64,000 nucleotides of DNA from Hormiphora californensis (Eukaryota; Animalia; Ctenophora), in assembly GCA_020137815.1 (NCBI GenBank), contig CM035351.1, forward strand, positions 372,001-436,000, in the 5' to 3' direction. Every line of letters starts with the position of its first letter. Position 1 is the stretch's first letter. A program made the translations under genes and the position numbers. Positions 129 through 29,773 of this stretch are shown here, piece by piece. Below the pieces are notes generated by a model. It did no database searches. It was not told the DNA's origin and saw only the letters and a list, made by a program, of their open reading frames with translations.

Positions 129-2334
129 CTAACTCTTCAAAACAGGGGTATAGCTCTTCTTTATGTAGTCAGACCTACAGACTGGGCAGGAGTGGGCCGT
201 ATCGGTGGTCAGGTTCTCAAACATTTCAATGCATGTCCTGTGGTAGACGTGACTGCAAGACAGGATAACTGCAGCCCGCCTCTTGCTGTATAGGGAGCCA
301 ATACAAATAGGACAGTCTGTCTCACATCTCCTATCAGCCTGAAATAATACAATGGTCAATAATAGATCTCATAAAACGAGCAAACGATTCTTTCTAAAAT
401 GTAGCCTCTACCACCCCTCACCTTGTCCTCAATTTTGAGCCACTTCTCTGCCGTGATCCTGCTCCCACTGACAAGGGCAGCGGTCTGCATGACCCTTCTA
501 CTTCGTGCTAGTTGGTCGTCCACATCCCGACATAGTTGGTCCACCGTGTCTGAACTATCCGTGACCATCTTAACCATCTGGCCCGTCAACCCAGCTAACT
601 GAGAATTAGAGGGTTAGTGTAACAAGTTGTCAGCCCTCTCTCTCTCTCTAAACAGTGGTTGAGTCGTATAGACTATAGCGGGCCTTTACTATTTTACTTG
701 GTGTCTTGGAATGTGAACTATATTTGGGGGTTTTCTAAGAACCCTGGGACAGAAAGTGAAGTACTAATGACACAGCACCAGCATCTCTTAAAATGACGTA
801 TTGTCACGGGCCGACTGGCTGCCATATAGTCTGGCTGGTTATTATGATGTAAATCGTTTAGATTTGTGCCCATTATGATTATCAAGTTTAATAATATGGT
901 GGGATGATTCGATCACTCATAAGTTCGCGTCCCTCTCATGCCCCTCTCACGTCCCTCTCACGCTCATTAGCTATGGCTAATAGAACCTAATCAGATCACA
1001 TTTCTTTTAGCCATAGTTGTATGCATCTATGGCTAATAGAATCTTTTAGCCATAGTTGCATACATCTATGGCTAATAGATTCTTTTAGCCATAGTTGCAT
1101 TAGCCATAGTTGTAGGTCACCTCTGGCTGCCACATTATAATGAGTGGTTACCAAGTAGTTACCAAGTTTGGAATGCTCACGTTCTGTCTGGACATGAACT
1201 CACCTTTTTCTCGAAGTATTTTGTGCGAAGAATGGGATCTTTAGGCGGATTTCTCTCTCTGTATTTTGAGTACCATTTCCTGACACGGTAGCCCCGCCAA
1301 ACAGACTGAATTCTGAAAAAAGGGAAATTGGATCAATTACAAGTCACTATGAAGCAAACAAAGAGGGTTCTACATGTTCTTACAGTGTGGCGGATGCATG
1401 GCGATGTCGTTTGGCTCCCTCGTGGATAACCCGTGTTTGGTATTGGTCCCTCCTGCACATTGGGCATGTTTTCCTGCCACTGAATCTCTCAAAGGCCGCC
1501 AAACATGCCTGAACAGATGAGGGATATTATTAACTAACTGAACCTATTTTGGTACATTGGGTCCATACCAACCAGGTTTGGATAACAATTACTGGAAAAA
1601 AGTGGAAAACAACGAAATGTCCGGGTCAATGACAGTTTTTACCCACTGTGGAGAGAGATATTAACAGGGCGATTAATTTGAAGATCGAGTGATATGACGG
1701 ATATAATGGATAAGAGAATTAGAAACACTAAATTATTTACGTGTACAATATCAGACCACTCAGGAGAAACATGTTCATTACCTTGTGAAAGACGTGAGAG
1801 CAGGATAAGAGGACCTGTCCGGTGGACTGTGTAAATTCTTCCTTGCAAATAACACATGGAGCACTACTATCACCTCTTCTGTTACTAGTTTCCTTGACCC
1901 GGGCCCAGTCCTGCTCCGTCAGTTGGGAGGGAGGGGGAGTTGCTAACCCATAACGCTGTGCGAGGGTGGGTGCTGGGGGAGCCGCCTCTAACACATACTC
2001 TCGGTCTACTTCAGGTTTGCTGTTTCTGTTGTTAGTTGATGGTGGTGGAGGTCCCCGTCTTCTGGCAGGTCGGGGTCTGGTGGATAAACCCAGGGACATG
2101 GAGAGGTGTTGTTGTAGCGCGGCCGCAGCCATTGCAGTACCCAATCGGGCACCGGTACCAGACCCCTGCTGGGGGAGATAATGGTGGGGTTAGTGGGGGA
2201 CGGGGTTAGTGAACTGTGATAATATACTGAACTACACTTTGGGGAAGCTATAATGCAACAAGAGTTAGAGTACCACCAAAATTTTGCAACTTTTTGCAAA
2301 AAGTGGTTGTTACCTGATGATCAGGACGTTTCAT
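129..2334 (-). CDS. RNF32: RING finger protein 32-like (RING - IQ motif - RING), about 6 exons
   Basis: Spliced frame MKRPDHQ|QGSG...AAAALQQHL...PTLAQRYGL...CVICKEEF...[29 protein letters not shown]...IQSVWRGY...CPICIGSL...[16 protein letters not shown]...[12 protein letters not shown] junctions are in phase. Confidence 0.88.
965..1112. repeat. Short palindromic tandem repeat in an RNF32 intron
   Basis: About 3 copies of TTTTAGCCATAGTTGxATxCATCTATGGCTAATAGA. Confidence 0.6.
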
Positions 2335-2630
2335 GGCGCCGTCTCTCTGGTCCCGGTAAACAGCCAAGTAGCCCAGTTGCTTATCAAGCAAACCAGTCCG
2401 AACCATCACCAATCAATTGGCTCATCCTTCTAAAGTTGGGGTTGATTGGATACAGAATTGGATAAAAATTGTACAAAACAGGAGGCATTCTCTAAAATAT
2501 TCACTGAAAAACAATCAAAATCGAAATACACACTCAATTACATACTAAAGTACAAACATTCACAATTCCATAAACCCCTGTACAAACATACACACTACTG
2601 ATTCTGATTTCTGATAACATTGTTCCTTTG

Positions 2631-26900: not shown

Positions 26901-29773
26901 CACCCTCTCACACTCCTGACGTCGTGTACAATATACAATGATGGAACCCAGCTCAGCGAACCGTTCCCCCTTCAACAGGGAGATGATTGCCATGTCTTTA
27001 TTGGGATCCATTGATACTGTCAGGTGGAGGTTCTCTCGCACTACTTGACCTTTCAGAACTCCCTCCTCTTCCGTAATTCCTGTGTAAAAAGAAATATTTG
27101 TGATATCTAACCAAACCAAAGTTAACTGAATTGTTAACATTTAAACCGTGGTTTGACAATACATATAAAGAACTGCTAAATTCACTGACCTAGGAACTTG
27201 CAGACAGACAGGGCACTAGCATTAGTACAGGTAGCAGTTAGACCCAGGAATGTGCCCACTCGGTATTTAGTTTTCAGTACATCACAAACCCGCAGATAAG
27301 CAGGTCTAAAGTTATCGCTCCAGCTGGACATACAATGTGCTTCATCAATACAGACAAAGGCAACCGGGGGCATCTTACGGGGTATTGCTCCTGAAATAGA
27401 GATGTGTGGTGTTTGAGATGAAGTCTTGTTTTCCTCTTTCGAAGTCTTGTTTTCCTCCTTCGATTACTGGGAATACGAACGAAGGAATTTTGATACTTTC
27501 CTTTATACTCTTCATGTAAATGATTAATTGTGATGGAGCGAGCACAGAAGATCGTCCAGCAGGCCACAATTAATCACTACATTACTCTGCCAGTGTTTGT
27601 TACGATGAGAATAATGTGACAAACTCAACAAATCAGGACACTGGATGTTTTATTTCAACCCTCTTTTTCCCCTAATACTATTTCCCAATCGTATAATTAG
27701 AGTGGAGGGGTGTATGATCTGTGATGTTCAGAAGATGGTTTCCAGGGAATGTTTTAACGACTTACCACTACTGCCGGCCATAATAGCCTCAGGGAATACT
27801 GGTCCCTGATTGGCTGATAACCAGTCACGTGACCTAAATAACGAGTTCTGATTGGTTGTTTACTTGTTCCTGGTTTCCAGGGAACAACTTACCACTACTG
27901 CCGGCCATGATAGCCTCAGGACTGACAAGAAGTAGAGGAACCTTGGCTGCCGAGATATCCTCTTTTAGACCCTCCTTTTGTTTTGTCGCCATGTGGGAGT
28001 GGATAGCACGGCCAGGTAACTTGGCAGGCAGGGACTGGACCTGGAGGGAGAGGGGATTAGTGGATAGCACGGCCAGGTAACTTGGCAGGTAGAGATTGGA
28101 CCTGGAATTTGGAAGGAGAGGGGGATTAGGGGAAATGGTGGGGCAAATTTGAGGTCATTTTTTAGGAAAATTATTTTTCTGAGAACAGTTCAAAGGGGGA
28201 TATGTACCTGATCGTCCATGAGGGAGATGAGAGGTGAAATAACGAGTGTTATAGCGGCCAGTTTCTCGTGATACAGGTACGCACACAGCTGATAGACTAA
28301 AGACTTGCCCCCGCCAGTAGATAGAACAAGTAGAGTACTCTTTCCCTTGAGAATCCTCAACACAGCCTCCCTCTGACCAGGTCTAAAGGAGGTATACCCC
28401 AGATCTTGTAACCCCCGCTGTAGTAATTCCTCTACCTCAGCCTCACTCTCACTACCATCAAGGAGTGGTGGACATTTCTCAGCGTCACTAGTTATCTCAG
28501 CCTCCCCACTGTTGTTCCCCTGAGGCCGCATCATAGGCTCCAAACTAGAGAAATCTAGCTCATCTCGTGCTGCTCTCTGTTCAGGTGTTATCTCGGGTGG
28601 TGGGGGTGGTGGTCCGGTACACTTGTTAGCCCAGTGCCCCTCTGTACCACACTTGTGACATTTACCCGGTTTAGAGTTAGCACCCTTCACCCAGGCTGGT
28701 GTTACACGGGGCTTCTTGTTAGGGTTCTTCCAGTCTTTAGGGGGACCCTTTCCAAAGAGACCACGGGCTTTCCATTGTTGACGTTTGTATGCTTCTCCAG
28801 TCATTGATTTCCCTTTGGGTCGGTACTTTTTACTCCTCATATTCAGACGGACAAAGTTTCCTTCATCGCCACCCCCAGAGGAAGTGTCGGGGGCTGCTTC
28901 AACCTTCCTTTTCTTGGGCGCCTGGAGAAGTGTGATTGTTAGAGAAATAACATTCCTAAACAAAGCGAAGTAACAGTGTTGAATACATTCCCAATACATT
29001 AAAAGTTAAAAACTGACCGGTAAAGGTGTGTTGAGAAGGTCATTGTTAATAGACAGGGGATCGTCCACTCTGGTTTGGAACTCACTGTCCGCACTCAATA
29101 AAACACCACGCGACTCTCCTGAATCTACACCAACAGAAGCACTGATATCCAAACCGGCCGCAGATGATTCAGTCAACTCAAACGGGTCCACTGCAGCAGC
29201 ATCTTTTTCTTTGCATTTCTTCGCGGGGGTCATTTTGAAGTTCAGGCGGAGAGCATCTTTTGGCAGGTAGGTTGTCGAATGGTTCAATATTCTCCTTCTG
29301 GTGTTAGATGCACACTAGACACATTTTCCTGGTCATCCAATTTCAATCGAGCACTGGCAGCAGCAAAACCAGATCTCCTGACAGGTGCCGCAGCTTTGGG
29401 AGTTGTAGTCTCCTTAATTTGGAGATCACCGAGAGAAAAATCATCGAGAAGTGAGCTGCTGGGAGGCAGTACTTTCTTGGCAACTTTAATGTTAATTTGT
29501 TTCCTAAGATCTGGTGTTATGGCAACAAATTTAGGCTTTTCATCTGATTTGACTTCCTTCGGTTTGTTCAAGTCAGCTCCGAATACGTCATTTCCACCTC
29601 CAGCGCTCTTCGCTACATAGTCCTTGATAGCAGCATAATCCTTGTAGCATTTCTGTATTTCTGGAGCAGCGCTTCTTAACATCAGTTTTCGTTGGTTTGC
29701 GGCTGTGTTGACGAATAAACATCCGTTCCCAACATTTTATATCCTTCTTTAATTCGACCAAGTCGTTCTCCAT
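23976..29773 (-). CDS. RECQL4: RecQ-like helicase 4 (Sld2-like N-terminus, zinc knuckle, RecQ helicase); frameshifts in exon 1
   Basis: KCWERMF...[33 protein letters not shown]...[69 protein letters not shown]. Confidence 0.93.
24543..24673. repeat. Dispersed repeat of about 130 bp present in two RECQL4 introns
   Basis: Nearly identical to about 27518-27650. Confidence 0.8.
25392..25679. mobile_element. MITE with terminal inverted repeats and an 8-bp TSD
   Basis: CCCAGTGCCCCGAT...ATCGGGGCACTGGG flanked on both sides by AACCTGAT. Confidence 0.85.

Follow-up and report, generated by a model that had tools for sequence, protein, structure and literature searches.

Probable leader-splice sites and candidate short operons in a co-oriented gene cluster of the ctenophore Hormiphora californensis

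Genes of the window

We analyzed a 64-kb window of the genome of the ctenophore Hormiphora californensis (contig CM035351.1, positions 372,001–436,000; coordinates below are those of the window), in which most genes of a co-oriented cluster carry an acceptor-like splice site close to the start codon. A first-pass annotation had described this cluster as twelve consecutive genes in an operon-like, trans-spliced arrangement. In our analysis, the window probably holds leader-splice sites of a lineage known for spliced-leader (SL) trans-splicing, together with candidate short operons and a distinction between UAG and CAG acceptors. All statistics were drawn from this single window, for which our gene models comprise 16 loci and a total of 50 GT-AG introns, with a minimum length of 71 nt and a median of 207 nt. 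The main features are listed below, with the minus-strand run first and in the direction of transcription; gaps are counted from stop codon to acceptor.

RECQL4, 23976..29773, minus: opens the minus run with 11 exons, the first of which has two frame breaks; a weak AAG at 29785
RPS29, 23561..23750, minus: TAG acceptor at 23750, 18 nt before the ATG at 23731; donor-less gap of 226 nt from RECQL4
HRG1-like membrane protein, 22008..23185, minus: TAG acceptor at 23185, 2 nt before the ATG; one donor-like site, scoring 6.0, at 23360
RPL34, 20816..21610, minus: TAG acceptor at 21610, 2 nt before the ATG; oligo-dT-primed 3' end at 20816 in X1 (contigs of the source species)
COQ6 copy a, intronless, 18747..20095, minus: TAG acceptor at 20095; three donor-like sites in the gap above
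Histone-fold gene, truncated 5' copy, 18140..18264, minus: belongs to a 2.2-kb tandem duplication
COQ6 copy b, 16581..17929, minus: TAG acceptor at 17929, 10 nt before the ATG at 17918, with an ATG-stop between; orthologue L001
Histone-fold protein (NF-YB/CBF type), 15401..16077, minus: weak TAG site 1 nt before the ATG; donor-less gap of 504 nt above
Likely internal start, 14626..15008, minus: TGACGTCA at 15001 and 14679, flanking an orphan exon-like piece; putative function
Rhodopsin-type G protein-coupled receptor (GPCR), 11894..13098, minus: one frame break; CAG acceptor at 13098; strong donors upstream at 14139, 13544 and 14625
POLR3F, 5232..11686, minus: 7 exons; its TAG acceptor (11686) and ATG (11623) are 62 nt apart; donor-less gap of 208 nt from GPCR
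SLC22/MFS transporter, 8121..9893, minus: same strand as POLR3F and within its intron 1; one frame break; TAG acceptor at 9893
Rab GTPase, 2631..5046, minus: TAG acceptor at 5046, 3 nt before the ATG; donor-less gap of 186 nt from POLR3F
Two-RING protein (RNF32-like), 129..2430, minus: TAG acceptor at 2430; donor-less gap of 201 nt from Rab
Strand-switch interval, 30100..41200, no strand: a ~2-kb element three times with a 32-bp satellite, local duplications, truncated RanGAP copy at 36141–36855
RanGAP1-like gene, 41244..47568, plus: opens the plus run; 2 nt separate a weak AAG from the ATG
CpG-rich gap followed by intronless Dicer, 47569..52790, plus: two TGACGTCA, donor at 47811, CAG acceptor at 48018
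PPP4C-like phosphatase, 52995..56533, plus: TAG acceptor at 52995, 8 nt before the ATG; donor-less gap of 205 nt from Dicer

The co-orientation that had been noted is borne out by the gene models: all 12 loci in 129–29773 are on the minus strand and the three genes at 41247–56533 are on the plus strand. However, not all of the twelve are consecutive or independent, since SLC22 is nested in POLR3F intron 1 and one COQ6 is a tandem duplicate, which leaves 11 independent loci. Counted from a given gene, the probability of 11 in a row is 0.001, and chance alone would give 6–10 such runs in a genome of 12–20 thousand genes; co-orientation alone is thus weak evidence.

Family membership was confirmed for RECQL4, RPS29, RPL34, the FAD monooxygenase COQ6, the histone-fold protein, the MFS transporter, POLR3F and Rab, as well as for the two-RING protein, Dicer and the RanGAP-type repeats. 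The GPCR family was confirmed from language-model neighbours, and the piece of the HRG1-like gene that was searched gave no Pfam match. HRG1, RNF32 and PPP4C are presumptive names, in part taken over from the first-pass annotation, with RNF32-like assumed from the domain architecture. Frame breaks in RECQL4, GPCR, SLC22 and Dicer suggest that the assembly is unpolished. Spliced X1 contigs matched four modelled RECQL4 introns and, roughly, a fifth; another joined POLR3F exon 1 straight to exon 2 (29 of 30 letters), skipping SLC22 in the 4-kb first intron. No gene hidden on the opposite strand was detected by Pfam among 82 other open reading frames (0 matches), a set that included the plus-strand frames of 1–30 kb except those overlapping a COQ6 repeat pattern.

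The best match of the COQ6 protein was a Pleurobrachia bachei record (93% identical), and a cluster at 53% included Mnemiopsis leidyi; the DNA is thus that of a Pleurobrachia-like ctenophore, and Hormiphora is in the family of Pleurobrachia. Leader trans-splicing is documented in the ctenophores H. californensis and M. leidyi; In Hormiphora, 56% or more of the full-length reads carry a leader, which ends in TGAG, and genes nested in parallel, on the strand of their host, are a common sight (PMC8527503). Judging from the COQ6 likeness and the documented Hormiphora leader, the window is, at the level of lineage only, that of an SL-using animal. The two COQ6 copies lie in a 2.2-kb tandem duplication (15957–20297; 93% alike) holding two intact COQ6 frames and the truncated histone-fold 5' piece, and this is either a recent event or an uncollapsed haplotype.

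Acceptor sites before start codons

The nine acceptors quoted in the first-pass annotation were all present, 2–18 nt before the ATG, and its broader claim that most genes have such a site also held above chance. An acceptor-like YAG no more than 25 nt before the ATG was found in 9 of the 14 independent genes versus 4.8% of 709 control ATGs (p 2e-9). The acceptor model used here was trained on the introns of the window and was blind to the base before AG; COQ6 copy a and the histone-fold fragment were excluded as non-independent, and the orphan piece upstream of GPCR as not being a gene. A model trained on CAG acceptors accepted 7 of the 14 genes versus 4–8% of controls. When the distance was extended to 100 nt, 11 of the 14 genes had an acceptor. 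The five genes failing the 25-nt test were POLR3F (acceptor 62 nt from the ATG), RNF32 (95 nt, or 23 nt if counted to an ATG further upstream in the same frame), the run heads RECQL4 and RanGAP, which have a weak AAG site only, and the histone-fold gene with its weak TAG.

The base before AG sets these sites apart. Introns of the window end in CAG in 43 cases and in TAG in 7 (n = 50), whereas pre-ATG sites selected by rule with the blind model were TAG in 7/9 (p 3e-4) and 9/11 (p 3e-5), and those picked by hand, orphan piece included, in 11/15 (p 3e-6). The only CAG sites before an ATG are those of GPCR and Dicer. The first exon base is C at 8 of the 15 hand-picked sites versus 4 of the 50 introns. 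The pre-ATG sites are a class distinct from the intron acceptors, and the TAG bias, absent from the first-pass annotation, is new here.

Gaps, donors and leader-like RNA ends

The stop-to-ATG distances that had been reported agree with the coordinates (RECQL4-RPS29 245, GPCR-POLR3F 271, POLR3F-Rab 190, Rab-RNF32 297 and Dicer-PPP4C 214 nt). Counted to the acceptor, five gaps between co-oriented genes span only 186–226 nt, the short distance expected of SL-resolved operons. We scanned 11 gaps, each without the upstream coding exons, for donors scoring at least 4.8, the 5th percentile of real donors (95% score that much or more). Seven of the 11 had none: RECQL4-RPS29 (226 nt), HRG1-RPL34 (398 nt), COQ6b-histone fold (504 nt), GPCR-POLR3F (208 nt), POLR3F-Rab (186 nt), Rab-RNF32 (201 nt) and Dicer-PPP4C (205 nt). 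Since short random sequence is often donor-free, the empty gaps rule out a local intron and show no depletion. Given a shortest intron of 71 nt, a gap of ~190 nt would have to fit a 3' untranslated region (UTR), a promoter, an exon and an intron. Donors were found in the gaps before HRG1, COQ6a, the orphan piece and Dicer, and are also available to GPCR and SLC22. The end of RPS29 is repeated ~200 nt downstream (23330–23370, minus strand), and this repeat is the source of the sole donor-like site in the RPS29-HRG1 gap.

A metagenome scan with an alignment (A1) yielded two loci from 87 stretches. One of them, L001, is a contig with a COQ6 orthologue whose first 23 bases are A/T-rich and end in TGAG, 9 nt before an in-frame ATG. 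Its protein is 54% identical to the Mnemiopsis cluster and 48% to P. bachei, versus at most 39% to other proteins among the matches listed, and because identity is highest to these two it is probably from a ctenophore. L001 has an ATG-stop before the true start, and so does the COQ6 of the window, whose AG is 10 nt before the ATG; at 20091, at 17925 and at 28–36 of L001, this extra ATG stands downstream of the acceptor or leader and ahead of the true COQ6 start, and a stop follows it directly or one codon later. The second locus, L002, was a weak match (34%) and was not used. In X2, contigs of a relative (~80% alike), two RPL34 contigs match the window exactly up to the base after its AG, which shows, as far as these sequences go, that RPL34 of this relative retains an acceptor-like site.

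One apparent leader was rejected. A loose end of X1 at 11617, in POLR3F, reads like a leader ending in TTTGAG, and we judged it to be a library tag because the identical 12-mer precedes oligo-dT at the RPL34 3' end and is a known artefact of NuGEN-amplified libraries (PMC4322613). No SL RNA gene was recognized in the window by match to the Hormiphora leader end (0 with up to 3 mismatches) or by Rfam, and the best match to the start of L001 had 7 mismatches in 23. In a text search of the literature for leader-end motifs, the Hormiphora paper was the only relevant match among the 20 listed. A search of sequencing runs gave no RNA run among the holders listed; two runs came back, one with 7% of the words, which counts neither for nor against. 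No piece bridging an intergenic gap was seen among the contig pieces listed (16/49 and 12), where uncovered parts prove nothing.

Transcription units and known systems

Our favored reading, which we regard as probable, is that most genes of the cluster have an unpaired TAG-type acceptor near the ATG and are likely leader targets, and that the cluster comprises several transcription units, with short operons plausible. Addition of a leader at most of the TAG sites is the part of which we are most confident. Its support is indirect, because the sites are non-random, unlike intron acceptors and mostly donor-less, and because the start of L001 is leader-like. To this extent the earlier idea of a trans-spliced cluster stands; the long polycistronic units that it included are not supported. 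The RNA upstream of each site, either an outron or the stretch behind the 3' end of the previous gene, would be replaced by the leader. At the gaps of ~190–230 nt, 3'-end formation upstream and leader addition downstream would resolve short operons, for which POLR3F-Rab-RNF32, RECQL4-RPS29, GPCR-POLR3F and Dicer-PPP4C are the candidates. We lean slightly towards at least one true short operon, for example POLR3F-Rab-RNF32. SLC22 might be freed by leader addition from the POLR3F intron or from the transcript of an intronic promoter.

GPCR and Dicer appear to be different, and for them own promoters and ordinary 5' introns would fit. The sequence TGACGTCA occurs four times in the window, as pairs upstream of these two genes, and both CAG-site genes thus combine such a pair with strong upstream donors, a coincidence noticed after the fact and in two cases only. 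Likely internal starts lie before both. The caveat already attached to Dicer, that it may have its own promoter, is upheld by the TGACGTCA pair and the donor at 47811 in the CpG-rich gap. Upstream of GPCR by 1.5 kb lies the orphan exon-like piece (14626–14859, minus strand), with a TAG acceptor at 14859, a 19-codon frame and a donor at 14625; it is possibly a 5' non-coding exon of GPCR. As a proxy for promoters, CpG observed/expected is 0.21–0.49 in four of the five short gaps versus 0.93–1.4 at the run heads and before Dicer.

It should be noted, however, that several observations weigh against our reading. Acceptors carry no information on promoters. Of the decoy sites, 44% are themselves TAG, against which the TAG bias is a modest one (p 0.04 and 0.012). 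Three TAG sites have possible donors (HRG1, 6.0; COQ6a, 8.7; SLC22, the donor of its host), and each gap is empty of donors in 26–91% of shuffles. Neither X1 nor X2, both sparse sets of contigs, contained a leader on any contig, and upstream of the X2 RPL34 start the consensus of the two contigs, merged with an agreement of 0.68, shows no leader; what it has there is a pyrimidine tract with a CAG, 4 nt ahead of the ATG. Finally, the leader-like start of L001 comes from a single contig, and the species is a distant one.

All genes of the cluster might instead be monocistronic, each with its own promoter and a short outron replaced by the leader, the dense packing reflecting a compact genome without operons; we consider this a realistic possibility, if not the one we expect. 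The mRNAs of ribosomal proteins are far more abundant than that of RECQL4, and a housekeeping gene such as POLR3F would hardly be headed by a GPCR, both of which would suit separate promoters. The last exon of an upstream gene can house a promoter, and a run of 11 is possible by chance. Most trans-spliced genes of animals are monocistronic (PMC1488885). Against this, the five gaps of 186–226 nt must accommodate the 3' UTR too, four of them are CpG-poor, and all are under the 250-bp rule by which chaetognath operons were defined (PMC12460157).

Ordinary cis-splicing, in which the AGs close 5' UTR introns and non-coding exons further upstream, perhaps shared or inside the neighbouring gene, supply the donors, is improbable as a general explanation. 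GPCR and Dicer are likely cases of it, and HRG1 and COQ6a possible ones; the branch-point motif is like that of introns (21/50 introns and 6/15 pre-ATG sites), and no leader read was seen in the contigs above. However, seven gaps lack a donor of real strength, the base bias of the acceptors is opposite to that of introns, and the POLR3F exon-1 donor was observed joined to exon 2 and not to SLC22. A single polycistronic unit over the whole 30-kb minus run with a promoter at the strand switch, the strong form of the first-pass annotation, would suit the 11 co-oriented loci, the weak AAG sites and CpG-rich upstream DNA of both run heads and the nine genes of the longest chaetognath operon (PMC12460157), but is very unlikely because internal starts are likely (two TGACGTCA and three strong donors in the 2.3-kb histone-fold-GPCR gap), donors occur in the 758-nt RPL34-COQ6a gap and expression is generally expected to vary widely among ribosomal-protein, RECQL4 and GPCR genes, and repeats make up the 11 kb of the switch region.

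The favored reading, leader targets with some short operons, has parallels in other animals. With the SL system of Hormiphora and Mnemiopsis it shares the phylum, the TGAG leader end and same-strand nesting; the main text of the Hormiphora paper, its supplement aside, does not use "operon" or "polycistron", and the passages compared here give no acceptor consensus (PMC8527503). Our literature search, whose coverage did not extend to that supplement or to Derelle 2010, found no report of ctenophore operons among the titles and abstracts listed. Like the SL-resolved operons of chaetognaths, C. elegans, Ciona and Oikopleura, the cluster has head-to-tail unrelated housekeeping genes, short gaps and an unpaired acceptor near the ATG; for the cluster, read-through and leader addition are predictions. 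Median intercistronic distances in SL-operon animals are 99, 1 and 31 bp versus 186–226 nt here, where the measure differs in running from stop to AG with the 3' UTR included. "Hybrid" operons with internal promoters have been described among SL-resolved operons (PMC7986045, PMC1488885, PMC12460157). Genes for ribosomal proteins receive a leader in Oikopleura, whereas most of those in Ciona do not (PMC1488885).

The RFC140-flp operon of Hydra is also from a non-bilaterian and joins two unrelated genes; there, the stretch between the two genes, which has a pyrimidine tract and an AG, was sufficient by reporter assay (PMC3273482). In Schistosoma, trans acceptors differ from cis acceptors in composition, with more U near the AG (PMC5832876), whereas the window has nearly a switch at one base, TAG versus CAG, in a small, single-window sample. 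In Ciona, donor strength matters more (PMC11155486). That ctenophores have SL-resolved operons and use UAG as the mark of trans acceptors and CAG as that of introns is a tentative extrapolation, and we regard it as doubtful. If genome-wide, the UAG/CAG distinction would suggest how one spliceosome can distinguish the sites used in trans and in cis, and how it might process genes nested on the strand of their host. If operons are real, one precursor would give several mRNAs, including SLC22 cut from the intron of same-strand POLR3F, and ctenophores would provide an independent case, from among the earliest-branching animals, for why trans-splicing and operons recur.

The proposal that long polycistronic units diverge from the 30–41 kb interval is not supported: the interval holds satellite-bearing repeats and a truncated RanGAP copy and does not look like a compact divergent promoter, and likely internal starts lie before GPCR and Dicer. 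The ~2-kb element with the 32-bp satellite core is present in three copies at 31093–39501, one inverted relative to the other two, and had no coding match; the truncated copy (36141–36855) comprises the RanGAP upstream region and first exons. Motifs at 36417, 40485 and 40973 presumably resemble the RFX X-box. The RanGAP1-like leucine-rich repeat protein (41247–47568, plus strand) has 1127 amino acids and a RanBP2-type zinc finger as well. By eye, it presumably also has two Ran-binding-like repeats, and we take it to be a RanGAP/RanBP2-like fusion. The intronless, 4.8-kb Dicer gene (48023–52790, plus strand) encodes helicase, dimer, PAZ and two RNase III domains and has its frame break near 50290. 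Tandem repeats whose unit covers a branch point, acceptor and exon start were observed at 54020–54850, 13098–13190 and 28041–28130; the first, in PPP4C intron 3, has ~18 copies of 46 bp, and the arrays at GPCR and RECQL4 are shorter.

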